Shown: positions 8,951 to 32,945, counted from the first letter of the stretch. The stretch is DNA of 64,000 nucleotides from Desulfuromonas sp. (GCF_002868845.1 NZ_PKUB01000018.1:45807-109806); one strand, 5' to 3'. Numbers and translations: made by a program. The notes: a model not told the origin generated them from the letters alone.

Positions 8951-10507
8951 ATGACAGCCCAACGCAGCGACGCCATCACCAAAGGCTTTGAACGCACCCC
9001 CCACCGGGCCCTTCTCAAGGGGACCGGAGTTCCCGAGGCCGAGATGGGCAAACCCTTCATCGGTATCGCCACCTCCTTCACCGACCTGATTCCCGGTCAT
9101 ACCGGGATGCGGGACTTGGAGCGGTACATCGAGAAGGGGGTCCACACTGGGGGGGGCTACTCCTTCCTGTTCGGCATCCCCGGTGTCTGCGACGGCATTG
9201 CCATGGGTCACAAGGGGATGCACTACTCCCTGCCCACCCGGGAGCTCATCGCCGACATGATCGAATCGATCGCCGAGGCCCACCGCCTCGACGGCCTGGT
9301 GCTGCTCACCAACTGCGACAAGATCACCCCCGGCATGCTGATGGCCGCCGCGCGCCTGGACATTCCCTGCATCGTTGTGACCGCCGGTCCGATGATGACC
9401 GGCGCCGGTCAGAAGGGGCGCCGCTTCTCCTTCGTCACCGACACCTTCGAGGCCATGGCCCAGTACAAGGCCGGGGTCATTGACGAACATGAACTCAAGA
9501 TCTGCGAAGATCACGCCTGCCCCACGACCGGAAGCTGTCAGGGGCTGTTCACCGCCAATACCATGGCGATTATCACAGAAACCCTCGGAATGAGCATGGT
9601 CCGCTGCGGCACTGCACTGGCCGTTTCCTCTCTCAAGCGGCGCATCGCTTTCGCCTCGGGCGAGCGCATCGTCGGCCTGGTCCGGGAGGGGATCACCCCC
9701 CGGCAGATCCTGACCAGCGAAGCTTTCGAGAACGCCATCCGGGTCGATCTCGCCCTGGGCGGTTCGAGCAACACCGTCCTGCACCTGCTGGCCATCGCCA
9801 AGGAGGCGGGCATCGAACTGCCCCTGGAGACCTTCGACAGCCTGAGCCGCACCACCCCGCAGCTCGCCTCCATGAACCCCGGAGGGGTGCATTTCATGGA
9901 AGATCTCGATGCCGCCGGGGGTGTGCCTGCCGTTTTCTATCAGTTGCGCGACCTGATCAAGGACAACCCGACCCTGACCGGTCCCACGGTCCGGCAGATC
10001 GTCGACAGCGTCGCCTCCGTCGAGGAGGACGTCGTCCACCCAGTCACCGACCCGGTGCGTCCCGAAGGGGGCATCGCCATTCTTTTCGGCAACCTCGCCC
10101 CGGACGGGGCCGTCGTCAAGCAGTCGGGGGTATCCGAGAAAATGATGAATTTCGAGGGCCGGGCCCGCTGCTTCGATTCCGAGGAGGCGGCCATGGAGGC
10201 TCTCATGGGCGGGGTCGTTGTCCCTGGCGATGTTGTGGTCATCCGCTATGAAGGGCCGAAGGGCGGTCCAGGGATGCGCGAGATGCTCGCCCCGACCGCC
10301 ACCCTCATGGGGCTCGGTCTTGGCGACAGCGTAGCCCTGGTGACCGACGGGCGTTTCTCCGGTGGAACCCGGGGGCCCTGCATCGGGCACATCTCCCCGG
10401 AGGCCGCCGAGGGCGGGCCCATCGCCCTGGTCGAGGACGGCGACGCCATCGTTCTCGACATCCCCAACCGGCGCCTCGAACTGTCGGTGGACGAGGCGAC
10501 CCTGTAG
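8951..10507 (+). CDS. ilvD: dihydroxy-acid dehydratase, interrupted by in-frame TAG at 10505-10507
   Basis: Contains [27 protein letters not shown]...[16 protein letters not shown]...[24 protein letters not shown]. The likely start is ATG 8951, since the track start at 8897 adds an atypical extension. The ORF ends ~40 codons before the family C-terminus. Confidence 0.9.
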
Positions 10508-10627
10508 GCGCGCCGGTCCCGCTGGCAGAAGCCGGAGCCCAAGATCAAGGGCGGTTGGCTGTCTCGCTACGCCGCGGTCGTGACCTCGGCAAATACCGGC
10601 GCCATCTGCAAGGGCGAGCAGGAGTAG
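10508..10627 (+). other. ilvD: in-frame continuation of ilvD after the TAG (conserved C-terminal tail)
   Basis: The same frame reads [39 protein letters not shown], then TAG at 10625-10627. This matches the conserved IlvD tail pattern W.P.P...G.L..YA..V.SA..GA. Confidence 0.8.
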
Positions 10628-10714
10628 GCATACACACGATGCCCCTGGTTCGCCCCCGGCGCAATTGGCCGGCGGTGCGATGGGCGTCGGATCTTTTTTT
10701 GGAGGAGGCTTTTT

Positions 10715-12412
10715 GTGAAAAAGACCGTATCGCAGATTCTCTTGGAATGCCTTCAGCTGGAAGGGGTGGAGACCGTTTTCGGCTACCCCGGGGGCACGGT
10801 TATCAATATCTACGATGACCTTATGGATTCTCCCATCACTCACGTCCTCACCCGCCATGAGCAGGCAGCGGTCCACGCCGCCGACGGCTTCGCCCGGGCC
10901 ACCGGCAAGGTCGGGGTGGCGATCGCCACAAGCGGCCCCGGCGCCACCAACACGGTGACCGGCATTGCCACCGCCTACATGGATTCCATCCCGATGGTGA
11001 TTATCACGGGGCAGGTTCCCACTCCCCTGATCGGCAACGACGCCTTTCAGGAGGCGGACATGGTCGGCATCACCCGGCCCGTCACCAAACACAACTACCT
11101 GGTCAAGGACGTCAAGGACCTGGCCCGCATCGTCAAGCAGGCCTTCTTCATCGCCCGCACCGGGCGTCCCGGGCCGGTCCTCATTGACCTGCCCAAGGAC
11201 GTCCAGATGGATTCCATCAAGTTCGAGTATCCCGACAAGGTCGAGTTGCGCGGCTACAAGCCGACCTACAGCGGCAACGTGCGCCAGATCGAGAAGGCGG
11301 CCAAGATGATTCTGGCCGCCAAGAAGCCGGTCATCTACGTCGGCGGCGGCGCGACCCTGGCCGACGCCCCGGCCGAACTATTGAGCTTTGCCGAGACGGT
11401 GCAGGTCCCGGTGACCACCACCCTGATGGGGATGGCCTCCTTCCCTCGCCGCCACCCCCTATCCCTCGGTATGCTCGGGATGCACGGCACCTACTACGCC
11501 AACATGGCGGTGACCAACTCGGACCTGCTGATCGCCGTCGGGGCCCGCTTCGACGACCGGGTCACGGGCAAGATTGCCACTTTTGCCCCCCACGCCAAGA
11601 TCATCCACATCGACATCGACCCGACCTCCATTAAAAAGAACGTGCGGGTCGACCTGCCGATCGTCGGCGACCTGTGCGACGTCCTGGGCAAGTTGACCAA
11701 GGCGGTAAAAGGCCACAAGGACGAGCTCAAGGCCTTGGTGGCCGACGGCGCCGCCTGGCGCGACGAGGTCCAGGTGTGGAAAGATGAGCACCCCATGGGC
11801 TACAAGGCCTCCAAGACCGTCATCAAGCCCCAGTTCGTCATCGAGAAGATCCGGGAGTTGACCGACGACGACGCCATCATCACCACCGAGGTGGGGCAGC
11901 ACCAGATGTGGACCGCCCAGTTTTTCGACTTCACCCAGCCGCGGACTTTCCTCAGCTCCGGCGGACTGGGGACGATGGGCTACGGGCTCCCCTCGGCCCT
12001 CGGCGCCCAGGCGGCCTTCCCCAAGCGGCAGGTCATCGACATCTCCGGCGACGGTTCCTTCCAGATGAACTCCCAGGAACTGGCCACTCTCGTTCAGTAC
12101 CGCCTGCCGGTCAAGATCGTCATCCTTAACAATAATTTCCTTGGGATGGTGCGCCAGTGGCAGCAGCTCTTCTTCGATAAGCGCTACAGCCAGACCTGCA
12201 TGGAGCTGCCTATCGACTTCATCAAGCTGGCCGAGGCCTACGGTGCAAACGGGTTCCGGGCCACCAAGCCGGAGGAGGTGGAGTCTGTCATCCGCCAGGG
12301 CCTCGAGACGCCGGGGCCTGTGATCATGGAGTTCAAGGTCGCCCGCGAGGAGAACGTCCTTCCCATGGTGCCCGCCGGTGCGGGCCTCAACGAGATGGTC
12401 CTGGCCTCCTAG
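10715..12412 (+). CDS. ilvB: acetolactate synthase large (catalytic) subunit
   Basis: GTG start preceded by GGAGGAGG. TPP-enzyme motifs are present: GYPGG...SGPGATN...[15 protein letters not shown]...GDGSFQMN. Confidence 0.95.
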
Positions 12413-14682: not shown

Positions 14683-14791
14683 CCAAACGTTGTATGGCAT
14701 AGTCGAAAAAACGAGTCCCTTTCCCTCGGAAAGCTTAAAGTTTCTTGACATCCCGGGTGTTTGTCTGGTCTAGTGAATATAACAATTCTTT

Positions 14792-15042
14792 AAAGGCTGT
14801 GAAGAGGAGTAGTAGGCCCTGCCCCCTGTCTCAGAGAACCGGCGCTTGGTGCGAGTCGGTACAGGAGAGGGTCGAACTCGCCTCGGAGCCGCGAGGGTGA
14901 ACCGCCGGATCCCGTTCGGACCCAACTAGCCCTCGACGTGAACCTGCGTTAACGGTCAAAACAAGGGCCCTGCCTGCAGGGCCGAAACAGGGTGGTACCG
15001 CGAAGCGCAAGCTCTCGCCCCTGTACGGGGCGGGAGTTTTTT
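14792..15042 (+). promoter_or_regulatory. T-box leader RNA (Leu specifier CUC) with terminator, upstream of leuA
   Basis: T-box sequence AAACAGGGUGGUACCGCG lies at 14985-15002. Stem I elements are GA/K-turn-like GUGAAGAGGAGUAGUAGG, AGAGA at 14833-14837, and distal GGUGCGA. The specifier-loop GAA (14874-76) is followed by CUC (14877-79). The terminator has a 10-bp stem at 15012-15036 plus UUUUUU. Confidence 0.8.
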
Positions 15043-15245
15043 ATTTTGCGCGCTCCGGAATGACCCAACCCGCTGGCAGTCGATTCCTGTCAGCGGCTCT
15101 CCAAGCGAAAGGGGGTGGTGACGTGGAATCGGACCTAGGTGACCTGATGGCCTTAAAACAGTCGGTTAAACTGGAAACATTGATAAATCACGTGCTGCCC
15201 CATCCGGCCTGAATGGCCGTGGCGGAAGTCGAAAAAGGAGGCTCC

Positions 15246-16784
<1,539 letters not shown>

Positions 16785-18217: not shown

Positions 18218-18336
18218 AAAGGCCGTCTCACGCAACGCCGAAAAAAATGCGGTTCGCTTTTGTTTGCTTGGCGATTTTGCGGCTTGAGCGAGCGCCGCGA
18301 GCGGGCGTGAGATCGGATTTTGCAAAGGAGTTTCAG

Positions 18337-18867
18337 ATGAAAAAAACCTTCGGCGGCCCGGCGATCTTCCTCGACCGGTCCGACATCAACACCGACGAGA
18401 TCATTCCCGCCAAGTACCTCACCGAGGTGACCAAGGAGGCCCTTCAGCCCTACATGCTCGAGGATCTCAAGCTCGAAGGCTTCGATCCCAAGGGGGAGAA
18501 ACTGAAGAACGCCCGGGTGGTCGTCAGCCGCGAGAATTTCGGCTGCGGCTCCTCCCGCGAGCACGCTCCCTGGGTCTTCGAGGTCAACGGGGTGCATACC
18601 ATCATCGCCCAGAGCTACGCCCGCATCTTCCGCCAGAACACTTTCAACGGCGGCATGCTCGCCATCGAGCTGCCGAAAGACGACCTCGACCGGCTCTTTG
18701 CTCTGGAGGGGGCAGGGGAGGTGGAGATCGCCGTCGATCTGGAGAAGCAGGCCGTCGTCGCCAAGGCCGGCGGCAAGACGGAGAGCTTCGCTTTCGAAAT
18801 CACCCCTTTCGACAAGGCCCTGGTGGAAGCCGGCGGCTGGGTGGAGTTCGCCGACGCGCGTTACTAG
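18337..18867 (+). CDS. leuD: 3-isopropylmalate dehydratase small subunit
   Basis: [28 protein letters not shown]...[16 protein letters not shown] 18337 is preceded by AAAGGAG. Confidence 0.93.
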
Positions 18868-18896: not shown

Positions 18897-18932
18897 CGGG
18901 GGCCGGACGCCATGTCCGGCCCCCGTTTTTTT
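18897..18932 (+). terminator. intrinsic terminator after leuD
   Basis: Stem CGGGGGCCGGAC (18897-18908) / GTCCGGCCCCCG (18914-18925), then TTTTTTT. Confidence 0.85.
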
Positions 18933-19159
18933 CTCCCTTTCCGACCGAGGTCGGGGGAGAGGGTTCGATTTTCCCCACCGCCGGAATTACGGGGCCGAAG
19001 GGAAGGGGTGGGACCGTCGGGTTGTCGTAGGGTTTGGCCGAAGGGGACGCGGTTTGGCGCGCCCAAAAATTGGGAAGTGTTAGAAGAATGTAAGTATTAT
19101 CGAGGCTTTTTTAGTTTTAGATTGGGCGCTAAAACACCGTTAAAGAATAAACCACATAC

Positions 19160-19306
19160 CTCCGATAAGAGCAAAACCGGGGCAACCCGGCGACGCAATG
19201 CCACGGGTCCCGAAAGGGACGGCCGGGCTGCCGAAGAGAGTCGATTGCCCCGCTTTTGCCAGGGAGTATCTCTACCCGCCTTCGGATTCGAAGGCGGGTT
19301 TTTTTT
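19160..19306 (+). promoter_or_regulatory. candidate GEMM-I (cyclic-dinucleotide) riboswitch with intrinsic terminator
   Basis: AGAGCAAAACC (19168-19178) is followed by hairpin CCGGG-GCAA-CCCGG (19177-19190, GNRA loop). Next come CGACGCAAUGCC (19191-19202) and a long hairpin at 19200-19228 capped by GAAA. CUGCCGA follows at 19228-19234. The terminator is ACCCGCCTTCG/CGAAGGCGGGT (19274-19299) plus T7-8. These blocks match the conserved GEMM-I blocks GCAAA..CC[GNRA hairpin]GG.GACGCAAAGCC...CCGA as I recall them. The outer P1 helix was not resolved by eye. Confidence 0.55.
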
Positions 19307-19427
19307 CGAGTCGCATATTTTTCAGACGTTCAAGATGGTCGGTTTTTTGTCCTTTATAAAATACCTGACATCGTCTGAGTATCCCTCGCGGTGTAATCCC
19401 ACGGGGGGTAAAGCCGTGCCCCAAACC

Positions 19428-22400
19428 ATGAGAAATCCCATGCACTATTGGATGCGAACTTGCGTTGTCTTCTTGATGATTCTGTCGGGCTCCGTTTTTA
19501 CTGCCGCTGATGCAAGCGCGTCTTTGCTTTGCGACCGGACCTACGGAACATCCGGGGTCGATGCAAACCCGGGAAGCAATAACTCCGTGGTCGCTGGCCA
19601 TGAACGGTACGGGGCGGCGACGGCACAGCTTGACCTAAACACGAGCGCGGGCCGGTCGGAAGAGGGGCCGAGGGAGCTGGTTTTTATCGAGGGGGACGTC
19701 GCCGACTACCCGAGTCTGGTAGAAGGAAGGGCCCCTGGAAAAGAGTATTTCATCCTCAATCCGACCCTACCAGGTCTTGAGCAGGTCGCGAAGATCCTGG
19801 AGGGGAAAAGCGGCATCCGCACCCTTCACCTCGTCACCCACGGTTCGGAAGGGGGCATCCACCTGGGGACAGAAACCCTGACCGAAAAGAACCTCTTTGG
19901 ACACTCTGCCGCGCTGGAGGCTGTTGGCCGTGCCTTAGGCGGGGACGCCGAGATTCTGCTCTATGGCTGCAACGTGGCGAGGGGCGCGCGCGGTGCGTCC
20001 TTTGTCTCGGCACTGGCCGAGGCGACCGGTGCAACCGTCGCGGCTTCGACCGACATCACCGGATCCCGGGACGGGGGGGGCGATAGCGTACTGGAATTCT
20101 CCACCGGCAGGGTCACGAGTGAGGTGCTCGCTGGTCTGAGCCGTTATTCCCACACCCTGGTTGCATCCACCACGACCTATACCTTCGACTCCGATAAGGA
20201 GGGCTGGACGGGTGATCGTTTTGGGTGGTGGGATGGTGCTATCTCTGCCCCCACAAACTCCCCTATCATCAACCTTGCCCCCCCGGCAGCGGCCTACATT
20301 CAGAGCCTTCAGATTCGCTCTTATCTGGGTACCGGGAATAACTTTACACTGCGGGTCTCTTACCAAGGCAGCGTGGTCTACTCGACCACAATCACGTACA
20401 CACAAACCGCTTATTCCACTTTGACGATCAACCAGAATGTCGATCGTTTGGAATTTGAAATTTCGGGAGCCGGCAATGGGTGGATGTACCCGGAAATCGA
20501 TAATGTCGTCACGCAAGGCGTAGTAAATCTCAACGCCCCCCCGACGGCCGCCAACAACACCGTCTACCCCCTCGCGGGGGAGGGCTTTGGCTTCAATGCG
20601 TCCCATTTCGGGTACCAAGACGCCGACGGCGACCCCCTGGCCAAGGTGACCATCGTCACCGTGCCGGCTGCAGGGACTTTGGTGATACCCGCTGAAGGTG
20701 GGAGGGAGAGAACCCTTACCAATGGCGCGACAGTCACCAAGGAGGAACTCGCCGCCGGCAGCCTGAGATACACCCCGAGCGGGAGCACCGACTCCTCCTT
20801 CACCTTCAAGGTCAACGACGGCACCGACGACAGCGTCGCCACCTATACCATGACCCTTGACGTCGTCTCCGCCCCGAAGATCACCGGGGTCTCCTCGACG
20901 ACTGCCGACGGCACCTATAAGGCCGGCGACACGGTGGCGGTGACCGTCACCTTCGACCAGGCGGTCACCGTGACCGGGGCGCCCCAGCTGACCCTGGAGA
21001 CCGGCGCCACCGACGCGGTCGTGAACTACGCCTCCGGCTCGGGGGCGAACACCCTGACCTTCAATTACACCGTTGCGGCGGGCCACGCCAGTGTTGATCT
21101 CGACTACACCGGAACCGCCGCCCTCGCCCTCAACGCCGGCACCATCAGGGGGGAAGGCAACATCGACGCGGTCCTGACCCTTGCCTCCCCGGGGGCCTCG
21201 GGCTCCCTCGGGGCCGGCAAGGCGATCGTGATCGACGGCGTCAAGCCCACCGTTTCCTCGGTCAGCGTCCCCGCCGCCGGCACCTACGGCGTCTTCGACA
21301 CCCTCGACTTCACCGTCACCTTCGGCGAGCCGGTCACCGTTAGCGGGACGGCCTCGAAACTCGGGCTGACCGTGGGCAGCATTTCCAAGGAGGCGTCTTA
21401 CCTGTCGAGCGAAGGTGCCTCGGTGGTCTACCGGTACACGGTGCAGGACGGCGACGACGACGGGGACGGCATCTCCGTAGGGGCCCTCGCCCTGAACCAC
21501 GGCTCCATCGTGGATGGGGCCGGCAACGCCGCCGATCTGACCCTGAACAGCGTCGGCGACACCTCCGGGGTCCTCGTGGGCAGCGCCTCCATCGGCGACC
21601 TCGTCTGGAACGACTCGAACGGCAACGGAGCGCGGGACGGCGGCGAAACCGGCATCGACGGCGTCACGATAGACCTCATCGCTGATGCCAACGAAAACGG
21701 GCGAATTGACGGCGGAGAATCTGCCGTGGATACTGCGACCACCGCCGTCGGCGGGGCCTACGACTTTACCAATCTCCCCGCCGGCAAATACGTCGTCGAC
21801 GTTACCGACACCGAGGGCGTCCTCGACGGCTACAATGTGACTACCGACAACGACCCCCTGGCCGTGACCCTGGCCTCCGGTGAGGATTCCAACGTCGCCG
21901 ACTTCGGCTACAAACCGGCCGACTCCACCGCCCCGACCCTGGCCGAGGTGACCAAGGTGGACACCCCGACAAAGAACACCACCCCTTCGTACACCTTCAG
22001 CACCGACGAGGCCGGCACCCTCGCCGTCGGCGGCAGCTGCGGCACCAGCAGCAGCACCTCCGTTGCCGCGGGGAACGTTACCGTCACCCTGACCAAACCC
22101 GATAACCACAGCGCCTTGGCCGACGGGAGCTACGACGACTGCACCTTGAAGGTCACCGACGCTGCGAACAATTCCAGCGAGGCCCTCGCCATTTCGACCT
22201 TCACCATCGACACCAAGGCCCCGACGGCGAGCATCGGTGCGCCCGACGTTCAGCTCACCCGTGGCGGGCCGGTCAGCTACACCGTCACCTACGCAGGGGC
22301 CGACAGCGTCTCGCTGGCCGCCGGCGACGTCACCCTGTCCACCACGGGGACGGCCAGCGGCTCCGTCGAGGTCTCCGGCACAGGTACACAGAGCCGAACC

Positions 22401-25400
22401 GTGAAGATCACCTCCGTTACCGGAAGCGGCACCCTCGGGATCAGCCTCGCCGCCGACACCGCGGCCGACGCGGCCGGCAACAGCGCTGCGGCCGCCGGCC
22501 CGAGCGCCACCGTATTCGTGGACAACGCCGCGCCGGCGATCCAGAGCGCGACTTTCGACAGCGATTACATCAACGCCGCCGGCGCCGCCGCGGTCAGCTT
22601 CACCCTCGGCGCCGCCGAGGTGGAGGCCGACTACAGCTACACCATCACCTCCGGCGACTGCGGCAGCAACGTCCAATCCAGCCTTCCCCTCGAAGGCCTG
22701 CCGAACTGCCAGGTCAGCGGCGCCGGCACTGTGACCTCGGGGACTCTTCAGGTCGGGTCGATCGACGTGAGCGGCCTGGCCGACGGCACCCTGACCCTGA
22801 GCGGGACCCTGACCGACAAGGCGGGCAACAGCGCCGACCCGGTCACCGACACGGCGATCAAGGACACCGTCGCCCCGGGCGTTTTCTCCGTGGCGATCGA
22901 TCAGGAGCGCATCAACGCTGCCAACGCCAAGGCGATGAGTTTCACCTTTGGCGGGGCCGAGGTCGACACGACCTATGTATATACGGTTGAATCTGACAAA
23001 GGCGGAAAACCGGTAATTGGAAAGGGCCCTTTGAAAAGCGCCGACCAAACACTCGGTTCCATCGACGTGAGCGGTCTGAGCGACGGCACCCTGACCCTGG
23101 TCGTGATCCTGGCCGATGCGGCCGGCAACGTGAGCAAGAAGGCCGTCACCGAAGTCATCAAGGACGCCAGTGCCCCGGGCATGAAAGGGGTCACCATCGA
23201 CCAGCAGCTGATCAACGCGGCCACGAGCCGCGCCCTGAGCTTCACCCTCAGCGGGGCTGAGGTGGGGGCCAGCTTCGACTACACCATGACATCCAGCGGC
23301 TGCGGGAACAACGCGCTGACCAGCACCCACCAACCCCAACCGGCCTGCGGCGACGTCTTCGGCAGCGGCACGGTGTCGATGTCCCCGCAGAAGGTCGCTC
23401 AGGTCGACGTGAGCGGCCTTCCCGATGGCACCCTGACCCTGACCGTCACCCTGGCGGACAAGTTCGGCAACAAGAGCAAGCCGTATACCGGCCAGGTCGA
23501 AAAGGACGCCTCCGCGCCCGGCCAGCACTCGGTGGCGATCGACCAGCAGACGATCAACGCCGGCAACTCCACGATGATGTCTTTCACCTTCAGCAGCGCC
23601 GAGGTGGGCGCTATCTACAGCTATACGGTCACCTCCGGCGGCAGTTCGAACAAAACCCCGGCCCATCTAGCCAACGCCCCTGCTCCGGTCGTTAGCGGGA
23701 AGGGCACGGTCCAGGGAGCCACCGAGACCATAAAGGGGATCGACGTGTCCCAATTGGCCGACGGCACTCTGACCCTAAGCGTGACCCTCTCCGACAAGGC
23801 GGACAATGTCGCCGCCCCGGTCACCGACACGGCGACAAAAGACACCGTTGCTCCCGATGCCCCTTCGGTCCCCGACCTGGTGCAGGATAGCGACACCGGC
23901 GCTTCGAACGCTGACGACGTGACCGCCGACAACACCCCCACCTTCAGCGGCACCGCCGAACCGGGTGCCACGGTGTCTGTCCATTTCGTGCTTCAGGCAA
24001 ACAATGCCCCCATCCAGCATGGCGGTCCCGTTCCGTTCAAGCTGCAGCCCACGACCGTCGCCGACGGCGACGGGGAATGGACCCTGACTCTTTCCGAGCA
24101 GGCCGGCGGCGACTACGCGGTTTACGCCACCGCCGTCGACACCGCAGGCAATGGGAGCAACGAGTCGAAGTCGATCAGCGTGACCATCGACACGACCTCG
24201 CCGGAGCAGCCCGCCGGGGCTCTCAGCGTCGCCGAGAACGCGGCCAAGGGAACGGCTGTCGGCACCGTGACCGCCAAAGAGGCCTTGGGCTTCTCCCTCG
24301 CGGACGACGCCGATGGGCGCTTCGCCATCGACTCTGCCGGTTCGGTCACCGTCGTCGACGATAACAAGCTCGACTACGAGACGAGCACGAGCCACGACAT
24401 CACCGTCGTCGCCTCCGACCTTGCCGGCAACCAGAGCAAGGCCGTCCTGAGCGTCACCGTGACCAACGTCAACGAGGCCCCGACCCTCGAAACGGAGATC
24501 CCCGACCAGCCTGCGGTCGAGGACCAGAAGTTCCATTTCGCGGTTCCGCAAGGGACCTTCGCCGACGAGGACGCCGGGGACAGCCTGACCCTGAGCGCAA
24601 CCCTGGCCGATGGCGGGGCACTGCCGGCGTGGCTCGGTTTCGCTCACGACGCCTTCAGCGGCACCCCGGGCAACGACGAGGTCGGGGTTCTGGAGATCAA
24701 GGTGACCGGCACTGACGGCCGCAGCGCCTCGGTCTCCGATACCTTCAAGATCACCGTGGCCAACGTCAATGACGCCCCGACCGTGGCCATGCCGATCTCC
24801 GACCAGCCGGCGAACGAAGACGAGAAGTTTAACTTCGCCGTTCCGCAGGGGACCTTCGCCGACGTGGACGCCGGTGACAGCCTGACCTTGAGCGCCACCC
24901 TGGCCGATGGCGGGGCGCTGCCGGCGTGGCTCGCTTTCGAGCAGAACACCTTCAGCGGCACCCCGGCCAACGACGACGTCGGCATCCTGGCGGTCAAGGT
25001 GACCGCCACCGACGGCAACAGCGCTTCGGTTTCCGATACCTTCGAGATTACCGTGGCGAACGTCAACGATGCCCCGACCGTGGCGGCGCCGATTCCCGAC
25101 ATGCCGGCCATCGAGGATGAGCGTTTCTCCTTCATCGTGCCCGCCGGGACCTTCGCAGACGATGACGAAGGCGATACCCTGACCCTGAACTCTGCCCTGG
25201 CCGACGGCTCGGCGCTGCCTGCGTGGCTTGGTTTCGCTAACGGCACCTTTAGCGGTACCCCGACCAACGACGATGTCGGGGCCCTGGAGGTGAAGGTGAG
25301 TGCCACCGACGGCAGCAATGCCTCGGTCTCCGACACCTTCGTGATCACCGTGGCCAACGTCAACGACGCCCCCATCGTGGCGACACCGATCGCCGACCAA

Positions 25401-27734
25401 CCGGCGACCGAGGACGAGCCTTTCGCCTTCGCCGTGCCGGAGGGGACCTTCGCCGACGAGGACGAAGGCGACAGCCTGACCCTGGTGGCCACCCTGGCCG
25501 ACGGTTCGGCGCTGCCGGCGTGGCTGGCTTTCGAACAGAACACCTTTACCGGCACCCCTACAAACGACGACGTCGGCATCCTGGAGGTCAAGGTGACCGC
25601 CACCGACGGCAACAGCGCTTCGGTTTCCGATACCTTCGAGATTACCGTGGCGAATGTCAACGACGCCCCGACCGTGGAGACGGAAATCCCTGACCTGCCG
25701 GCGACCGAGGACGAGCCCTTTGTCTTCACCGTGCCGGCCGGGTCCTTTGCCGACGTGGACGAAGGAGACACCCTGATACTGGACGCCACCCTGGCCGACG
25801 GTTCAGCGCTGCCGGCGTGGCTGGCCTTCGAACAGAACACCTTTACCGGCACCCCTACAAACGACGACGTCGCCATCCTGGAGGTCAAGGTGACCGCCAC
25901 CGACGGGGAGGGCGCCACGGTCTCCGACACCTTCGTCATTACCGTGATCAACGTCAACGACCCGCCGGTCGCTGGGGACGACACGGTCTCCACCAGGGAG
26001 GACAACAGCGTGACCTTCTCGCCCCTGGGTAACGACGGCGACGTGGACAGCGCCGTTCTGACCGTGGCGAGTGTTTCCAAGGCGGCCCACGGCAGTGTCA
26101 GCATGGGTCAGGACGGAACCGTTACCTACGCCCCTGTTGCAAACTATAACGGCCCGGACAGCTTCTCCTACACCGTCAGCGACGGGAAGGCGACCGACAG
26201 CGCCACGGTGAGCGTCACCGTCACCGCGGTCAACGACCGGCCGGTGATCACCGGGCAGGCCTTCGAACTCAGCGTCGCCCAAGGGGGCAGCCTCACCCTG
26301 GCCGTCACCGACCTGCTTGTGACGGACCCCGACGACACTGCCTTCACCCTCGGGGTGCGCGACGGCCTGCGCTACAGCGTCAACGGCACGACCGTGACCG
26401 CCGCAGCCGGCGCCAAAGGAACCCTGACAGTCCCGGTGGCGGTCCACGACGGCACTACCGCCAGCGAATTCTTCGCCGTCACCCTCATCGTCACCGACGG
26501 CACCGCCCCGACGGTCACTGCCGACCCGGCAGGCGGGCTCTTCAAGGACGATGTGAGCGTGATCCTGTCGGCCGAGGACAACGAGGATGCCAACCCGACC
26601 ATCACCTACAGCCTCGACGGGGGCGCCCCGGCGACTCCCTATGACGGCGGCGCCATCCATATCGAGGAGAGCCTGACCCTGCGCTTCGCTGCCGAGGACG
26701 CCGACGGCAACCGCAGCGCGACGGCCGAGGCGGCCTTCACCATCGACCTTGAGGCGCCGGTCATCGTCCTGTCCACCCTGGCCGATGGCAGCGTCACCGC
26801 CGAAGAGGTCCTCAACGTCTCCGGCACCGTCACCGACGATGTCGGCGTGAAGGGCCTGACCGTCAACGAGCAGGAGGTTCTCCTCGGCTCCGACGGCAGC
26901 TTCAGCGCCGCGGTCGCCCTCGAGGAGGGGGCCAACAGCGTCACCGCCCTGGCCACCGATCAGGTCGGGCGACAGGCGAGCCAGACCTTCAGCGTGACCC
27001 GGGACGCCAAGGCCCCCCAACTGACCGTTACCGCTCCGGCCGATGGCAGCGTGGTCGACAGGGAGCTGGTCACGGTGAGCGGAAGCGCCGATGAGGGCGC
27101 GACCGTGACCGTCGCACTCAACGGCGGGGACGCCGAGCAGGCCGTGAGGGTCGGGGACAAGTTCTCCGCGACTGTCACCCTGCAGCCCGGCATGAACACC
27201 ATCTCCGTGGCCGCCCAAGCCAAGGGCAAGACGAGCAGCGCCAAGCGTTCGGTCACCCTGGGCGAAAAGCAGCTCAGCCTGGCGATCACCGACCCGGCCA
27301 AGGACGGAGCGGTCTACCGCAAGAGCATGACCCTGAAGGGGACCGTGAATAGTTCCGACCCGGAGAAGGTGACAGTCACCGTCGGCGAGACGACCCATTC
27401 CCCGAAACTCAGCGAGAGCGGCGCCTTCGAACAGGAGTTGACCTTCCCGAAGGCCGGAACCTTCTCCGTGATCGTTACCGCCACGGACGCCTCGGGAGAG
27501 ACCGTCAGCGCGGTGCGCAACGTCATCTACGACCCGCCGATCCTCATGGACGTCAACGGGGACGGAAAGGTCACCCCGCTGGACGTGCTGCTCGTGATCA
27601 ACTTCCTCAACAATAACGGATCCTCTCCGACCCCGAAGGCGTTTGCCGCAGGGGATGTCAACCACGACGGTTACATCACCGCCATTGACGCCCTGATGAT
27701 CATCAATCACCTCAACTCCGGGTCAGGTGGTTAA
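19428..27734 (+). CDS. giant secreted multi-repeat adhesin-like protein (DUF4347 + Ig-like + SdrD/Cna-B-like + cadherin-like repeats + C-terminal dockerin-type module)
   Basis: Signal peptide [32 protein letters not shown] 19416 and ATG 19440/19452 are alternative starts. The track start at 18912 is rejected because that stretch contains two terminators and the riboswitch. Domain content is read from the translation (see sub-features). Length is 2,768 aa from ATG 19428. Confidence 0.9.
19674..20066 (+). other. DUF4347-like N-terminal module of the giant protein
   Basis: [16 protein letters not shown]....[16 protein letters not shown]....[18 protein letters not shown]...L........L...[37 protein letters not shown] follows the DUF4347 pattern seen at N-termini of very large repetitive proteins. 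Confidence 0.6.
21591..21915 (+). other. SdrD B-like / Cna-B-type domain
   Basis: [30 protein letters not shown]....NG..D.....[22 protein letters not shown]. Confidence 0.6.
22552..23860 (+). repeat. four tandem ~100-115-aa Ig-like repeats (in-frame, coding)
   Basis: The repeating unit is (V/F)(A/T)IDQ..INA.N...MSFTF..AEV...Y.YT..S...[variable]..G.GTV......[21 protein letters not shown]......T...KD..AP. Unit starts are near 22552, 22891, 23190 and 23533. Confidence 0.75.
24465..25970 (+). repeat. five tandem ~297-300-bp dystroglycan-type cadherin-like repeats (in-frame, coding)
   Basis: Each unit reads PI.DQPA.EDE.F.F.VP.GTFAD.D.GD.LTL.ATLADG.ALPAWL.F....[37 protein letters not shown]. The VANVNDAP boundaries lie near 24770, 25060, 25355, 25655 and 25950. 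Units 2, 4 and 5 share long near-identical DNA stretches. Confidence 0.85.
27549..27731 (+). other. dockerin type I-like duplicated Ca-binding segment (C-terminus of giant protein)
   Basis: [22 protein letters not shown]...(14-aa linker)...[23 protein letters not shown]. There are two DxNxDGxxxxxD loops, each followed by a helix, which is the dockerin repeat architecture. Confidence 0.75.
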
Positions 27735-27812
27735 GGGGACCCCTTCGTTCGCTCCGCCCCGTGAGCCGGGGCGGAAAACACAACAGGATCACGGGGGCGT
27801 CCCCGTTGAACG

Positions 27813-29015
27813 ATGCGAAAAGGAATACACCAGATGAGAAACAGAGGACTGAAACAGATCGCGACCCTCCTGCTCCTACTCGGCTTCGGCCTGCTGACCG
27901 CCTGCGGCGGTGGCGGCGGGGGAGGGGATGGCTCCGGCTCTCTCACCGAGGTAGGCGGCACCGTCTCCAAGGGCCCGGTGGCTGGTGCGGCCGTGGCCAT
28001 CTACGCCCTTGACGAGGTGGGAGTGAAGGGCGAGCTGCTCGCCGAGGCGACCACTGACGGTAGCGGCGCATACCTCGCCGATCTCGGCGAGTACGAGGGT
28101 CCGGTCCTTGCCGAGGCGACCGGCGGCAGCTACCTCGACGAGGGGAGCGGCGAGACATTGAGCATCCCGGCGGACGCCTCACTGCGAGCGGTCCACTCGG
28201 CGGCCAGCGGGGTTGTGACCCTGCACGTGAGCGGACTGACCGAGCTGGCGGTGCAGGTCGCCGAGGCCGCAGGCCTCTCCCTCGAGACGATCGCCGCCGC
28301 CTACGATCAGCTCGAAGAGGTCTTCGGCTTCGAGGCCGAGACGACGGCGCCGGTCGCACCCGTCTCCGCCGCCCTGGCCGGTGCCAGTGACGCCGAGGTC
28401 GACTACGCCCTGACCCTGGCGACCCTCTCCCGGCTCGCTTTCGACTGGAACCTGGACTTCGACGCTCTGCTCGCCGAGTTGGCCGATGAACTGGCAGTCG
28501 ACGGGGTCCTGAGCGCCGCGACCCTGGCTGCCTTCGACGCGGCCGCGGCGGCCCTGCTCGACCCGGAGAACCCGGACAACGCCACCGGCCTAGCGGGAAC
28601 GGCCGGCACCGGACTGGCCTCCGTGGGACGCACCCCGGCGACCCTGACCCTCTTCGTCGGGGGGGACCTTCCGGCCGGGAGCATCGGCGCCCTGCAGCTC
28701 AACCTGGTGATTCCGGAAGAGGCCTTCGTCGCTTTGGATGCAGAAGGGGAGGCCGACGTCACCCTCCTCGCTGAGGGGATCGACCCCGATTGGGGCTGGG
28801 GGGCCTTCTGGGACATGGCCGCCGGGACCCTCAATCTGACCTTCCTCAGTTTCGAGGGGTTAGGCTCGGGGGAGCTGGTGACGATCGATCTCGACCTGGT
28901 ACTTGGGGACGAGGTTGCGGCCGAGGATTTCGTCCCCACAAACGTGGTTGCCCTCGATCCCCTCGTTGCCGAACTCGACGATGTCGAATTCGAACTGGAA
29001 CTGGTGACAGAGTAG
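27813..29015 (+). CDS. lipoprotein with Gly-rich linker, CarboxypepD_reg-like N-domain and cohesin-like C-terminal region
   Basis: Signal peptide plus lipobox LLTA|C (Gly at +2), then GGGGGGGDGSGS. GGTVSKGPVAGAAVAIYALD..G.....ATTDGSGAY is a carboxypeptidase-regulatory-like fold pattern. The start is ATG 27813 or ATG 27834. It begins 79-100 nt after the giant gene. Confidence 0.8.
   Translation: MRKGIHQMRNRGLKQIATLLLLLGFGLLTACGGGGGGGDGSGSLTEVGGTVSKGPVAGAAVAIYALDEVGVKGELLAEATTDGSGAYLADLGEYEGPVLAEATGGSYLDEGSGETLSIPADASLRAVHSAASGVVTLHVSGLTELAVQVAEAAGLSLETIAAAYDQLEEVFGFEAETTAPVAPVSAALAGASDAEVDYALTLATLSRLAFDWNLDFDALLAELADELAVDGVLSAATLAAFDAAAAALLDPENPDNATGLAGTAGTGLASVGRTPATLTLFVGGDLPAGSIGALQLNLVIPEEAFVALDAEGEADVTLLAEGIDPDWGWGAFWDMAAGTLNLTFLSFEGLGSGELVTIDLDLVLGDEVAAEDFVPTNVVALDPLVAELDDVEFELELVTE
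28635..29012 (+). other. cohesin-like beta-sandwich candidate (C-terminal ~125 aa of the lipoprotein)
   Basis: PATLTLFVGGDLPAGSIGALQLNLVIPEEAFVALD...GTLNLTFLSFEGLGSGELVTIDLDLVLGD. The alternating hydrophobic beta pattern resembles cohesin blocks (I.a.qf.l.yd / g.i.f.f.....g.G.l..i.f.v). This is a by-eye judgement only. Confidence 0.35.
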
Positions 29016-29050: not shown

Positions 29051-29088
29051 GAAGGCCCTCGCCCTGGAGAAGAGGGCCTTCCTCTTTT
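29051..29088 (+). terminator. intrinsic terminator after the lipoprotein gene
   Basis: Stem GAAGGCCCTC (29051-29060) / GAGGGCCTTC (29072-29081), then CTCTTTT. Confidence 0.7.
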
Positions 29089-29584: not shown

Positions 29585-30745
<1,161 letters not shown>

Positions 30746-30793: not shown

Positions 30794-31891
30794 ATGAACG
30801 TCGGACTTGTCGGTTGGCGTGGCATGGTCGGGTCGGTCCTCCTGCAGCGCATGCAGGAGGAGGACGATTTCGCGGGTATCGAGCCCGTCTTCTTCTCTAC
30901 GTCCCAGGCCGGGGATCCCGCCCCGATGAACGCCGGGACTCTCAAGGACGCATCGGACCTGGACGAGCTCAAGAAGCTCGACGTCATCATCACCTGCCAG
31001 GGGGGCGACTACACAAAGTCGGTCCACCCCGAACTGCGCAAGGCCGGCTGGCAGGGGTACTGGATCGATGCGGCCAGCTCCCTGCGCATGGAGCCCGACG
31101 CCGTCATTATCCTTGACCCGGTCAACCGGGGTGTCATCGACGCGGCATTGGCCAAGGGGCAGAAGGACTTCATCGGCGGCAACTGCACCGTCAGCCTCAT
31201 GCTGATGGCTCTCGGCGGGCTGTTCCGCGCCGGGCTGGTGGAGTGGCTCTCCGCCATGACCTACCAGGCGGCCTCGGGAGCCGGCGCTCCAAACATGCGC
31301 GAGCTTCTCTCCCAGATGGGCGTCCTGGAGGGCTCGGTGGCCGGCCTGCTCGCCGACCCGGCCTCGGCCATCCTCGACATCGACCAGAAGGTCACCGCTA
31401 CCCTGCGCGGAGACGCCCTGCCGGCGAAGGAGTTCGGCTTTCCCCTGGCCGGCAGCCTGCTGCCCTGGATCGACCGCGAGGTGGAGGACGGCCAGAGCCG
31501 GGAGGAGTGGAAGGGCTTCGCCGAGACCAACAAGATCCTCGGCGGTGCAAGCCCGATCCCCGTCGACGGGATCTGCGTGCGGGTCGGCGCCATGCGCTGC
31601 CACAGTCAGGCGCTGACGATCAAGCTGACCCGGGACGTGCCGATCGCCGAGATCGAGGCGCTGCTCGCAAACGACAACGACTGGGTCGAGCTGGTCCCCA
31701 ACACCAAGGCCGACACCCTGGCCCGACTCACCCCGACCGCCATCTCGGGAACCCTGTCCGTTCCCGTCGGCAGGGTGCGCAAGATGAAGATGGGGCCGCA
31801 GTACCTTTCGGCCTTTACCTGCGGCGATCAGCTGCTGTGGGGCGCGGCTGAGCCGCTACGGCGCATGCTGCGCATCCTGATGGAAAAATAG
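30794..31891 (+). CDS. asd: aspartate-semialdehyde dehydrogenase, long enterobacterial-type (~365 aa)
   Basis: [33 protein letters not shown]...[10 protein letters not shown]....[18 protein letters not shown]...[11 protein letters not shown]...[15 protein letters not shown]...[17 protein letters not shown]. This closely parallels the E. coli-type Asd as I recall it. Confidence 0.9.
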
Positions 31892-31925: not shown

Positions 31926-32945
31926 GTGTCCAGGGAATTCAGCGTGGCCGTCGTCGGCGCCACCGGCGCGGTTGGCAACGAAATACTGCGAGTGCTCGAG
32001 GAACGCCAGTTCCCCGTGAAGGAGCTGCGCCTGCTCGCCTCCGAGCGGTCCGAGGGGACGTTTCTCGAATTCCGCGGGGAGGAGATCGTTGTCGAGGCCC
32101 TCGGCAATGATTCCTTCGGGGGAATTGATCTGGCCCTTTTCTCCGCCGGGGGGGAGCTCAGTCAGGAGTATTGCCCGGTCGCGGCGGCCGCCGGGGCGGT
32201 CTGCGTGGACAACTCCAGCGCGTGGCGCATGGACCCTGAGGTGCCGCTGGTGGTCCCGGAGGTCAATCCCGGGGAGATCGCCCGATTCCGAAACAAGGGG
32301 ATCGTCGCCAACCCCAACTGCTCCACCATCCAGATGGTGCTGCCGCTGAAGGCGCTGCACGACTTCAGCCCGGTGAAGAGGGTGGTCGTCTCGACCTACC
32401 AGGCGGTTTCGGGCAGCGGCCAGAAGGCCGTCGATGAACTGCGCATCCAGTCCGGCGAACTGCTCAACGGCCGGCCCATCGAGTGCAAGGTCTACCCCCA
32501 CCAGATCGGCTTCAACTGTCTGCCCCAGATCGACGCCTTCCTCGACAACGGCTACACGAAGGAAGAGATGAAGATGGTCAACGAGACCAGGAAGATCCTG
32601 GGGGACGATGGCATCAGGGTCACGGCGACGGCGGTGCGGGTGCCGGTCTTCTACGGTCACAGCGAGTCGGTGAACGTGGAGACGACAGGGAAGATCACCG
32701 CAGTCAAGGCCCGTGAACTGTTCGCCGCCTTCCCCAGCCTGGAGGTTCTCGACGACGCGGCGAAAGGCGTCTACCCCATGCCGGTCGCTTCCGCCGGGGA
32801 GGACCTCACCTACGTGGGGCGCATCCGCGAGGACGAGTCCGTGGACAACGGTCTCAATCTCTGGGTCGTGGCCGACAACGTCCGCAAGGGGGCGGCGACC
32901 AACGCCGTGCAGATCGCCGAAATCCTCGCGGAGAAGTACCTGTAG
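31926..32945 (+). CDS. asd: aspartate-semialdehyde dehydrogenase, short type (~339 aa)
   Basis: GTG start. VAVVGATGAVG....VL.ER.FPV.ELRLLAS.RS.G......G.E..V.........D.ALFSAG...S......A...GA.VDNSSA.RMDP.VPLVVPEVN....IVANPNCSTIQMV, with the active-site Cys in NPNCST. Confidence 0.88.
   Translation: MSREFSVAVVGATGAVGNEILRVLEERQFPVKELRLLASERSEGTFLEFRGEEIVVEALGNDSFGGIDLALFSAGGELSQEYCPVAAAAGAVCVDNSSAWRMDPEVPLVVPEVNPGEIARFRNKGIVANPNCSTIQMVLPLKALHDFSPVKRVVVSTYQAVSGSGQKAVDELRIQSGELLNGRPIECKVYPHQIGFNCLPQIDAFLDNGYTKEEMKMVNETRKILGDDGIRVTATAVRVPVFYGHSESVNVETTGKITAVKARELFAAFPSLEVLDDAAKGVYPMPVASAGEDLTYVGRIREDESVDNGLNLWVVADNVRKGAATNAVQIAEILAEKYL

Follow-up and report, generated by a model that had tools for sequence, protein, structure and literature searches.

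A giant dockerin-ended adhesin and its neighbouring lipoprotein as a putative lipid-anchored form of the cohesin-dockerin system in Desulfuromonas sp.

The window, by which we mean the whole 64-kb stretch of DNA that was analysed, contains a riboswitch, a gene for a giant repeat adhesin and a lipoprotein gene, all on the same strand, with the gene pair located in the interval between leuD and leuB. The features are as follows.

19160-19235, plus strand: c-di-GMP-I (GEMM-I) riboswitch aptamer (Rfam RF01051)
19274-19309, plus strand: intrinsic terminator, 11-bp GC-rich stem followed by T8 (terminator scan and sequence)
19428-27734, plus strand: giant adhesin gene, 2,768 aa (open reading frame and translation, Pfam domains, coding-type codon-position GC bias)
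19428-19514, plus strand: Sec-type signal peptide, adhesin aa 1-29, ending in ADA (read by eye from the sequence)
19677-20129, plus strand: DUF4347 module, adhesin aa 84-234 (Pfam, 7.6e-44)
21585-21851, plus strand: SdrD_B / Cna-B-like domain, adhesin aa 720-808 (Pfam, 2.7e-16)
24225-26507 (outer limits approximate), plus strand: cadherin-like repeat region with Cadherin, five He_PIG repeats and Cadherin_5/Big_9/Cadherin_4 (Pfam; NCBIfam tandem-95 repeat)
26745-27527 (approximate), plus strand: Ig-like stalk base, Glucodextran_B-like, three stretches directly before the dockerin (Pfam and comparison with the L001 adhesin)
27546-27716, plus strand: dockerin type I module, adhesin aa 2707-2763 (Pfam Dockerin_1 and motif scan)
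27753-27775, plus strand: intergenic GC-rich hairpin with no T run (sequence and RNA fold)
27834-29015, plus strand: lipoprotein gene, 393 aa (alternative upstream ATG at 27813, giving an open reading frame of 27813-29015)
27834-27941, plus strand: lipoprotein signal peptide, lipobox LLTA|C24 and Gly-rich tether, aa 1-36 (sequence)
27945-28556, plus strand: N-module, predicted as a transthyretin-like beta domain (aa 38-129) and a helical bundle (aa 134-241) (AF2 model and Foldseek)
28617-29012, plus strand: predicted divergent cohesin-like domain, lipoprotein aa 262-393, a nine-strand beta sandwich (AF2, Foldseek and profile link)
29061-29087, plus strand: weak terminator-like site 3' of the lipoprotein gene, 5-bp stem and tail CTTCCTCTTT (low confidence)

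A first-pass annotation of this DNA had described a protein of about 2,768 aa with a Sec signal, DUF4347, an SdrD/Cna-B-like domain and Ig- and cadherin-like repeats, and Pfam and the translation agree with that description. The best cadherin-like stretches in Pfam are at aa 1600-1678, 1981-2075 and 2176-2266, He_PIG is matched in five stretches (1.5e-77), and Big_13 is also matched. When the protein was compared with the adhesin of the closest relative (L001), the C-terminal block, stalk base included, was 66% identical, and the N-terminal ~1,850 aa gave no match. The tail had been read as a type I dockerin, and the PF00404 search proposed at the time bears this out: over profile positions 2-57 of 57 the whole adhesin scores 59.4 bits (cut-off 22.9; E 4e-16), and the tail scanned alone scores 65.4 bits (5.4e-18). 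The module consists of two tandem, nearly symmetrical segments of ~22 residues, each with a Ca loop and then a helix, and by motif scan both loops carry D1, N3, D5 and D12, a complete set of Ca ligands. This canonical double-loop motif occurs only once within the 64-kb window. The annotation was also right that the C-terminus is not of the RTX or type I secretion kind, as Pfam found no RTX/HemolysinCabind match in the adhesin. With its Sec-type N-terminus and dockerin C-terminus, we rejected classification of the protein as an RTX or type I-secreted giant. A cellulosome was likewise rejected, the adhesin having no glycoside hydrolase or CBM and the lipoprotein having a single cohesin-like domain.

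The riboswitch at the head of the operon was missing from the first-pass annotation. RF01051 aligns over its entire length (model positions 1-87 of 87) with a score of 59 bits, compared to a gathering score of 35. Column 11 of the aptamer model, which by our own indexing equates to Vc2 G20, is an A. The G20-to-A change defines cGAMP riboswitches, and G20A RNAs can bind both ligands (PMC6140456). Because an A occupies the ligand-selectivity position, the sequence suggests a candidate cGAMP-type (GEMM-Ib) switch. The terminator lies 39 nt beyond the aptamer and roughly 120 nt ahead of the adhesin start, and is probably the expression platform of the riboswitch; GEMM-Ib switches in Geobacter act via terminators, turning genes on (PMC6456294). 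Among the related pairs, one has tandem RF01051 copies upstream (L012), and RF01051 was absent at gathering score upstream of five others (L001, L009, L011, L013 and L014).

The lipoprotein had been placed some 80-100 nt downstream of the adhesin gene, with a lipobox, a poly-Gly linker and no terminator in between. This is what we observed. The distance from the adhesin stop is 78 nt to the ATG at 27813 and 99 nt to position 27834, the latter being the likely true start because it has an AAGGA ribosome-binding site, agrees with the NCBI annotation of 393 aa and is where homologues begin. The terminator scan found no terminator-like site in the gap; the hairpin at 27753-27775 has no T run and is therefore not a classical terminator, and the RNA fold of the whole spacer is not significant (z = -1.6). 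The protein is 100% identical to NCBI C0617_05290 from a Desulfuromonas sp. MAG. Its lipobox, which is followed by GGGGGGGDGSGS, agrees with the pattern [LVI][ASTVI][GAS]C of signal peptidase II substrates; neither C24 nor the Gly run varies among aligned homologues, and a lipobox was detected by regex in 59 of 84 short family members. In the full-length AF2 model (pLDDT 83.7), the signal and tether segment (aa 1-36) has low pLDDT, and the N-module that follows is putatively a stalk or anchor module.

The last ~125 aa had been guessed from their sequence pattern to resemble a cohesin, and on this point the fold and profile evidence agree. A direct Pfam Cohesin (PF00963) match had also been proposed and was not found, either in the lipoprotein at E<=1 or in the C-domains of 15 relatives at E<=10; NCBIfam likewise gave no match for this domain or for those of the relatives. 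Modelled alone, as had been suggested, the domain gave an AF2 prediction (pLDDT 94.6, pTM 0.87) with the nine-strand flattened beta sandwich (jelly-roll) of a cohesin. When this model was compared to the PDB with Foldseek, cohesins made up nine of the best ten matches, with TMq of 0.55-0.66 and rmsd of 3.0-4.1 A (8ajy, 0.66; OlpC 4dh2, 0.64; 9gvb, 0.64; 2xdh, 0.55), and many cohesins were among the matches of the full-length model as well. The domain's E-values, from 1e-3 to 2e-2, were modest, and its matches also included beta sandwiches of other kinds (Cna-type, CLIPPER). We then consider sequence kinship. From 1.84 billion cluster representatives, a profile built on the domain recovered 989 at E<=1e-3, of which 254 reached E<=1e-10, a family consisting mostly of lipoproteins of ~170 aa. 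Pfam Cohesin was present in five of the best 148 profile matches, and the scores of four of these five, which we inspected, were above the Pfam cut-off. The two models coincide on P0019 (Pfam 181-306, profile 188-302, profile E 3e-23) and on P0088 (440-547 and 435-560, 3e-14), such that the residues assigned to Cohesin by Pfam are those at which the domain profile matches these proteins, at E 1e-14 to 1e-23. A search of PDB sequences with the profile found nothing, and hhalign of the domain against the CipA cohesin 1AOH was not significant (probability 0.4%). Together, the model and the profile support a divergent cohesin at the C-terminus of the lipoprotein, one whose sequence kinship to accepted cohesins is indirect.

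Co-occurrence of the two genes in relatives had been put forward as a check. Of 31 informative loci, 26 have a dockerin-ended gene as the next gene upstream of the lipoprotein: 13 of the 14 with a long or short lipoprotein form, and 13 of the 17 from metagenomes. The adjacent dockerin gene was absent at P0006 and at four of the 17 metagenome loci. At all 11 loci with the full architecture (the window, L001, L003, L009-L015 and L024), the tail of the upstream gene matches Dockerin_1, and both of the short single-domain lipoproteins that were examined are preceded by a dockerin-ended gene. The 514 kb of DNA examined contain 28 dockerin-like tails, 25 of which immediately precede such a lipoprotein gene. 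The remaining three all belong to the L024 cluster, which has four dockerin genes and one lipoprotein, so the pairing is not strictly 1:1. The cargo bodies differ wholly between loci and include cadherin, fn3/MBG, RCC1-like repeats (identified by eye) and others; adjacency tracks the dockerin tail, not the cargo body, across unrelated cargos and contexts. Many two-membrane bacteria carry such a pair. In L001 it is found in the rplQ-trpE interval, a different chromosomal setting from that in the window, and therefore the pair moves as a unit. Between the window and L001, identity is 34% for the dockerin vs. 66% for the adjacent stalk, and 55% for the cohesin-like domain vs. 81% for the N-module. 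Across 24 pairs, dockerin and cohesin-like divergence were correlated (Mantel r = 0.60, permutation p = 2e-4), a result confounded by shared ancestry. From these alignments, the two modules appear to diverge together and faster than their flanks. Of the three outcomes named beforehand as speaking against a cohesin-dockerin pair, two were a C-domain without cohesin-like fold or HMM similarity and a lack of linkage in related genomes; what we found was the fold, the profile similarity and the linkage.

We propose, with a probability of roughly 0.65, that the locus encodes a surface adhesin and its lipid anchor in an operon of two genes, controlled by a cyclic-dinucleotide riboswitch, and that the dockerin is docked on the cohesin. 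Transcription would start upstream of 19160, and the GEMM-I aptamer and terminator would gate read-through into the genes, with 3',3'-cGAMP or c-di-GMP as the likely ligand and gene activation as the likely effect. The 2,768-aa adhesin would be exported by Sec and would probably cross the outer membrane by type II secretion, its Ig- and cadherin-like repeats forming a long, variable adhesive stalk that ends in the Ca-binding dockerin. The co-transcribed lipoprotein would receive its lipid at Cys24 and go to the outer membrane, its flexible Gly tether leading to the transthyretin-like and helical stalk module and then to the divergent cohesin at the C-terminus. A non-covalent dockerin-cohesin contact, expected to be Ca dependent and exposed at the surface, would keep the giant protein on the cell via the lipid anchor. 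The arrangement may be likened to the attachment of cellulosomes to Gram-positive cells by anchoring scaffoldins, except that the anchor would be a lipoprotein and that cargo and anchor form a 1:1 gene pair. The evidence thus supports the original reading of the lipoprotein as an anchor onto which the adhesin would dock by its C-terminus.

The 64-kb window holds nothing to show how the 2,768-aa adhesin or the lipoprotein reaches the cell surface. In the default sorting established for E. coli, lipoproteins without Asp at +2 end up in the outer membrane facing the periplasm, and the cassette has no gene for a surface-export factor. Both points favor an arrangement that we consider unlikely, in which the lipoprotein sits on the inner leaflet of the outer membrane, faces the periplasm and binds the dockerin there. 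The adhesin C-terminus would then be held inside while the rest threads out, or the adhesin would be held until secretion; functionally this would resemble a LapA-type retention module built from a cohesin and a dockerin, and the cohesin-dockerin and linkage evidence would serve it equally well. However, no outer-membrane pore gene is found in or beside the cassette at any locus seen. The same lipobox, Gly tether and N-module also occur in direct fusion with a PhoX/PhoD/5'-nucleotidase protein of 3,076 aa (L018) and with an Ig-domain protein (P0009), and phosphatases and nucleotidases are sensible cargo outside the cell. Furthermore, Foldseek matches the N-module to HIUase/transthyretin-like proteins and to 9i0d, the non-heme domain of PgcA. 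The module is similar to the first domain of this lipoprotein, which Geobacter exports across its outer membrane (PMC11520253).

Export of PgcA needs its lipid attachment motif (PMC11520253), which also lends something to a quite improbable scheme in which the dockerin-like tail is a tag and the lipoprotein a dedicated recognition factor, not a permanent anchor. The cargo might be presented to type II secretion, for example, or carried out with the lipoprotein, after which the adhesin would be set free or fixed at some other site. The lipoprotein genes here are tightly paired 1:1 in operons with highly varied cargo genes, as in tag/sorting-enzyme systems. Against this, Pfam, NCBIfam and the AF2 model reveal no enzyme-like or pore-like domain in the lipoprotein, and some family members have two or more cohesin-like domains in the manner of a scaffoldin (L013; P0019, P0094). 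To our knowledge, the cohesin-dockerin pairs characterised so far all make stable contacts, for assembly or for anchoring, which also speaks against the scheme. We give very little credence to the absence of any direct interaction, with the C-terminal domain a generic beta sandwich (e.g., a carbohydrate- or matrix-binding module), the genes adjoining through a shared envelope or biofilm role and the dockerin binding something else: the missing Pfam Cohesin match, the modest Foldseek E-values with other adhesin sandwiches listed and the five loci without the neighbor would fit, but the neighbor relation goes with the dockerin tail despite unrelated cargos and chromosomal settings, true cohesins are matched by the profile at the residues that make them cohesins in Pfam, and both modules seem to co-diverge faster than their flanks.

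We conclude that the adhesin and lipoprotein, as adhesin and surface anchor, are a putative new, lipid-anchored form of the cohesin-dockerin system. The recurrent pair may explain the binding partners of many "orphan" dockerins in two-membrane bacteria.

Among known systems, the anchoring scaffoldins of Clostridia (OlpC, SdbA, ScaE) share with this pair a C-terminal, two-Ca-loop dockerin on a secreted protein and, as partner, a nine-strand cohesin-fold domain (here a predicted fold) on an envelope-anchored protein; among solved structures, our domain model is matched best by 4dh2, the cohesin of OlpC. In contrast to the scaffoldins, the anchor here would be an N-terminal lipid in a diderm instead of SLH domains or sortase, there is one cohesin per neighboring cargo gene, the cargo is an Ig/cadherin adhesin without a glycoside hydrolase, and the cohesin is too divergent for PF00963. 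Cohesin-dockerin modules outside cellulose degradation also occur in Archaeoglobus fulgidus, whose cohesin 2xdh is among the top structural matches of the domain, and in ANME archaea and their sulfate-reducing partners. According to the available excerpts of two reports, the partner bacteria encode adjacent cohesin and dockerin domains beside an Ig-like adhesin, complexes of which were proposed to function in cell-cell adhesion (PMC10553843, PMC9012536). Those cohesins are recognised by standard domain models, whereas the family described here is invisible to Pfam and NCBIfam, and the same excerpts make no mention of a lipoprotein anchor or a riboswitch (PMC10553843, PMC9012536).

The GEMM-I/GEMM-Ib regulon of Geobacter (pgcA, omcS, pilMNOP and others) likewise couples an RF01051 aptamer to a terminator in a Desulfuromonadales genome and has been linked to attachment to extracellular surfaces (PMC6456294), but its reported targets are cytochrome, pilus and polysaccharide genes, with no dockerin adhesin and cohesin-like lipoprotein among them. 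LapA/LapG/LapD-type and other RTX adhesins are also giant Gram-negative repeat proteins whose surface retention is under cyclic-dinucleotide control. They differ in having RTX repeats and a C-terminal type I secretion signal where this adhesin has an N-terminal Sec signal, in using a c-di-GMP receptor and a protease where we find an mRNA riboswitch, and in being retained by an N-terminal plug where we propose a C-terminal dockerin. Finally, Cag_2037 and Cag_2038 of the Chlorochromatium epibiont are neighbor genes in a Gram-negative bacterium, Cag_2038 for a giant Ig-repeat protein that ends in a dockerin and Cag_2037 for a partner with a cohesin, and their binding was proposed from AlphaFold 3 modelling (bioRxiv 10.64898/2026.03.19.712371). 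In that pair the cohesin, recognised by InterPro, is on Cag_2037, a giant type I-secreted RTX protein, whereas here it is predicted on a 393-aa lipoprotein, next to an adhesin that has no RTX and carries a Sec signal.

Pfam recovered the modules that the first-pass annotation had read in the giant adhesin, namely DUF4347, the Ig- and cadherin-type repeats and SdrD_B, and NCBIfam additionally matched a tandem-95 repeat. The proposed dockerin end scored well over the Dockerin_1 cut-off and carries the full set of Ca ligands in both loops; in a motif scan, it was the sole canonical double-loop dockerin motif within the 64-kb window. No RTX signature was found in the adhesin by Pfam, in agreement with the RTX-free C-terminus noted earlier.

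Features of the adhesin gene
19428-27734, + strand: adhesin open reading frame, 2,768 aa
Adhesin aa 84-234: DUF4347 (Pfam, 7.6e-44)
Adhesin aa 720-808: SdrD_B (Pfam)
Adhesin: Cadherin_3, Big_13 and Cadherin (Pfam)
Adhesin, five stretches: He_PIG (Pfam, 1.5e-77)
Adhesin: Cadherin_5/Cadherin_4/Big_9 (Pfam)
Adhesin, three stretches: Glucodextran_B-like (Pfam)
27546-27716, + strand: Dockerin_1, adhesin aa 2707-2763 (Pfam, 59.4 bits, cut-off 22.9)

The next gene encodes the lipoprotein that had been proposed as the membrane anchor onto which the adhesin docks. Its open reading frame spans 27813-29015, and the start at 27834, which has an AAGGA ribosome-binding site, agrees with the NCBI model and with the homologues; the product is 100% identical to NCBI C0617_05290 from a Desulfuromonas sp. 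MAG. The lipobox (LLTA/C24) and Gly run are present as described and invariant across the lipoprotein family and, together with the adhesin features, confirm the descriptive part of the first-pass annotation. Between the two genes lies a GC-rich hairpin of 8-9 bp with no T run (27753-27775, + strand), which might influence read-through or how stable the mRNA is; folding of the entire spacer gave no significant result (z = -1.6).

Curated sequence models did not recognize the last domain of the lipoprotein (28617-29012, aa 262-393) as the cohesin that it had been taken to resemble. Pfam Cohesin matched neither the lipoprotein nor, with the threshold relaxed to E≤10, the C-domain of any of 15 relatives, and NCBIfam had no named family for any of these proteins. 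A C-domain profile had no match among PDB sequences at E≤10, and an hhalign comparison of the family with CipA cohesin 7, a canonical clostridial cohesin whose sequence was checked against 1AOH, was not significant. The structure predicted for the domain alone, however, was cohesin-like: the model of aa 262-393, built from a 60-sequence alignment, has nine strands (pLDDT 94.6, pTM 0.87), and nine of its ten best Foldseek matches in the PDB were cohesins, with a CLIPPER domain at rank 5. TMq values were 0.64 for 4dh2 (OlpC), 0.66 for 8ajy, 0.64 for 9gvb and 0.55 for 2xdh (Archaeoglobus), the cohesins 2vo8 and 4iu2 were also among the top ten, and the Foldseek E-values were modest (1e-3 to 2e-2). 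A search of 1.84 billion cluster representatives with a profile built from eight C-domains gave 989 matches at E≤1e-3, of which 254 reached E≤1e-10. Pfam Cohesin was carried by five of the best 148 of the 989 (four of the five scores were seen, all above the cut-off), and the Pfam and profile matches fell on the same residues, at 181-306 and 188-302, respectively, in the matched protein P0019 and at 440-547 and 435-560 in P0088. From the modeled fold and this profile link, we conclude that the C-terminal domain belongs to the cohesin superfamily but has diverged beyond the reach of current curated models.

A typical profile match is a protein of 150-185 aa with a signal peptide, a lipobox, a Gly-rich linker and one cohesin-like domain. 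The window lipoprotein is a longer form, with a transthyretin-like and helical module between tether and cohesin, and some members have two domain copies, as does the lipoprotein of related locus L013, or several. The cluster members listed were annotated only as "hypothetical protein," and a homologous-protein search with the broad profile A9 returned three matches only, all unnamed. The L013 protein (9905-11386, Geomonas sp. Red32), with its two tandem cohesin-like domains, is like a mini-scaffoldin. At locus L024 (1582-15880), three dockerin-ended genes precede, and a fourth follows, a 721-aa lipoprotein with Ig-like inserts. Other relatives (P0088, P0094, P0124, P0127, and P0045) combine cohesin or cohesin-like domains with a dockerin in a single chain, like adaptor scaffoldins, and such single-chain relatives sometimes bear BspA-type LRR, MBG or FIVAR domains.

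The AlphaFold2 model of the whole lipoprotein (pLDDT 83.7, pTM 0.82; 8-sequence alignment) divides into a beta domain (aa 38-129), a helical bundle (aa 134-241) and the beta sandwich (aa 266-392). Its Foldseek matches in the PDB included many cohesins, plus transthyretin/HIUase-like folds for the first domain. The first two parts, which form the N-module (27945-28556, aa 38-241), structurally resemble the non-heme first domain of PgcA (9i0d; Foldseek E 2e-4, 163 columns, 16% identity), an extracellular lipoprotein cytochrome of Geobacter. No sequence-level link between the N-module and PgcA was found, the full-length lipoprotein profile matching FimX alone, and that spuriously. In more distant homologues, similarity is limited to the lipobox, the tether and the N-module. 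In P0009, the N-module precedes Ig-like domains of kinds present in the window adhesin. At locus L018 (9899-19126, a Gammaproteobacteria MAG), lipobox, Gly tether and N-module head a 3,076-aa protein with PhoX, endonuclease/exonuclease/phosphatase (Exo_endo_phos), PhoD and 5'-nucleotidase domains, an assembly that resembles a giant, lipid-anchored array of enzymes for phosphate scavenging. Because the N-module is fused to other proteins in L018 and P0009, we suggest that it may tether extracellular proteins to the membrane; in the window pair, a cohesin-dockerin contact would stand in for the covalent link of these fusions.

The expected linkage of the two genes in related genomes was borne out. 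A gene with a dockerin-like tail lies upstream in every one of the 11 full-architecture lipoprotein loci and in most others, and Pfam Dockerin_1 matched 11/11 of these tails at E≤1 (the bit score listed is that of the window tail only). The closest relative, an uncultured Desulfuromonas whose lipoprotein is 68% identical (locus L001), has the same pair, and a genome scan for the lipoprotein found further loci in Geomonas, Geotalea, Geomesophilobacter and Geobacteraceae. A farmland-soil homologue (36% identical) starts 40 nt after the gene of a >3,002-aa fn3 and MBG protein that has the dockerin tail alone in common with the window adhesin. Two short single-domain lipoproteins from among the profile matches follow dockerin-ended genes at distances of 11 and 23 nt, the cargo being an RCC1-like repeat protein (by sequence reading) and an Ig-rich protein. 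In a metagenome scan seeded with another subfamily, 13 of the 17 loci with upstream sequence were organized likewise, the gaps being 17-165 nt; a dockerin neighbor was absent at the other four and at P0006, whose neighbor is a divergent PAS kinase. The 514 kb of fetched DNA contained 1,083 six-frame open reading frames (≥150 aa), 28 of which end in a dockerin-like motif. For 25 of the 28, the gene immediately downstream codes for a cohesin-like lipoprotein, and the remaining three belong to the L024 cluster. The unrelated cargo bodies and the tail counts across loci indicate that the gene association tracks the dockerin tail rather than the body of the cargo.

The cassette lies on the + strand and splits a leucine/branched-chain amino-acid cluster between leuD and leuB; the order is acetolactate synthase small subunit, psd, pssA, T-box leader, leuA, leuD, cassette, leuB and two asd-like genes. 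Mere residual synteny is ruled out as the cause of the linkage: in L001 (1-12866), the cassette is flanked by rplQ and trpE, and the pair has thus moved or been acquired as a unit.

Surroundings of the cassette and RNA elements in the window
14790-15025, + strand: T-box leader (127.6 bits), upstream of leuA (15213-16784)
18247-18867, upstream of the cassette: leuD (Aconitase_C)
19160-19235, + strand: complete c-di-GMP-I aptamer (Rfam, 59 bits, gathering score 35)
19274-19309, + strand: terminator with an 11-bp stem and T8, the strongest of the region
29591-30745, downstream of the cassette: leuB (Iso_dh)
30794-31891 and 31926-32945, + strand: adjacent genes, both matching Semialdhyde_dh and Semialdhyde_dhC (aspartate-semialdehyde dehydrogenase)
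58828-59011, - strand: 6S RNA (SsrS) match, 48 bits, barely over the gathering score of 46.4

The window and L001 adhesins align over their C-terminal ~900 aa only, and the first ~1,850 aa of the window adhesin have no match in the L001 adhesin. Identity in the conserved part is 66% for the stalk and 34% for the dockerin, while in the lipoprotein it is 81% for the N-module and 55% for the cohesin-like domain, both putative contact modules thus diverging much faster than their neighbors. Over 24 pairs, the identity matrix of the dockerin tails was correlated with that of the cohesin-like domains (Mantel r = 0.60, permutation p = 2e-4), and nearest neighbors agreed in 12/24, a co-divergence that would be consistent with an interface shifting its specificity and much of which shared ancestry alone could yield.

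The aptamer and terminator ahead of the adhesin start (19428) had no place in the first-pass finding. We rejected the terminator at 19274 as the end of leuD, which has its own hairpin and T run at ~18900-18933; the aptamer also precedes 19274. Column 11 of the aptamer model, which corresponds to Vc2 G20 by our own indexing, is an A in the window, and because of this base, the aptamer is a candidate cGAMP-type (GEMM-Ib) switch. In Geobacter, riboswitches of the cGAMP-sensing GEMM-Ib type characteristically have A in place of G20, and some of them bind both ligands (PMC6140456); in G. sulfurreducens, GEMM-Ib switches turn on extracellular cytochrome, pili and polysaccharide genes and are tied to attachment to extracellular surfaces (PMC6456294). 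The pair at locus L012 has two tandem aptamers ahead of its dockerin gene (6580-6654 and 6786-6860), and Rfam found none at gathering score upstream of the L001, L009, L011, L013, and L014 pairs.

The docking interpretation of the adhesin and lipoprotein is supported as far as computation allows. We infer that a cyclic dinucleotide, as the riboswitch ligand, would allow transcription past the terminator; that Sec would export the adhesin; that the lipoprotein would be lipidated and then sorted to the outer membrane; and that the dockerin would bind the cohesin-like domain in a Ca-dependent manner, so that the long Ig/cadherin stalk would be displayed from the lipid anchor. Alternatively, the lipoprotein may retain the adhesin in the periplasm, which we consider unlikely, or it may serve as a sorting adaptor, which seems to us slightly less likely still. 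That the two proteins act without direct contact is highly improbable. The pair is probably a new form of the cohesin-dockerin system, one with a lipid anchor, and it belongs to a large family that lacks annotation. We put at about one in two the probability that this family (~1,000 clusters at 50% identity, mostly ~170-aa lipoproteins) forms a branch of the cohesin superfamily that is the missing partner of the many "orphan" dockerins of diderms. Secreted proteins of every type with a dockerin tag, adhesins and RCC1-like repeat proteins among them, would then each be held at the outer membrane by a cognate lipid-anchored cohesin from the next gene downstream, in a general modular surface-display system that is here riboswitch-controlled.

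Many proteins of non-cellulolytic bacteria, Proteobacteria and Desulfuromonadales included, end in dockerin-like tails. To our knowledge, the matching cohesins are usually not found, which is why the role of such tails has stayed obscure. If the lipoprotein family is the partner, annotation pipelines overlook about a thousand cohesin clusters, and the biology could be tested by simple pull-downs, since the operon of each cargo also encodes a candidate anchor for it. Giant adhesins of two-membrane bacteria would gain a lipid-anchored, non-covalent tethering route in addition to type I/LapG systems, autotransporters and type IX sorting, and many small orthogonal cohesin-dockerin pairs would be available for Gram-negative surface display. 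Through the riboswitch, the system would also be linked to the way in which metal-reducing bacteria control surface attachment by cGAMP/c-di-GMP.

Our coverage of the literature, which was incomplete, turned up no account of lipoprotein-borne cohesins paired with dockerin adhesins or of riboswitch control of such pairs. Non-cellulosomal cohesin/dockerin proteins, some of them adjacent, are described in ANME archaea and their sulfate-reducing partners (PMC10553843, PMC9012536) and also in a Chlorobiota epibiont (bioRxiv 10.64898/2026.03.19.712371). Those reports rest on standard domain models and modeling, whereas the window family escapes Pfam and NCBIfam. The anchoring scaffoldins of cellulosomes follow the same logic as the window pair, which differs from them in having a lipid anchor in a diderm, a 1:1 operon pair, an adhesin as cargo and a cohesin outside the reach of Pfam.
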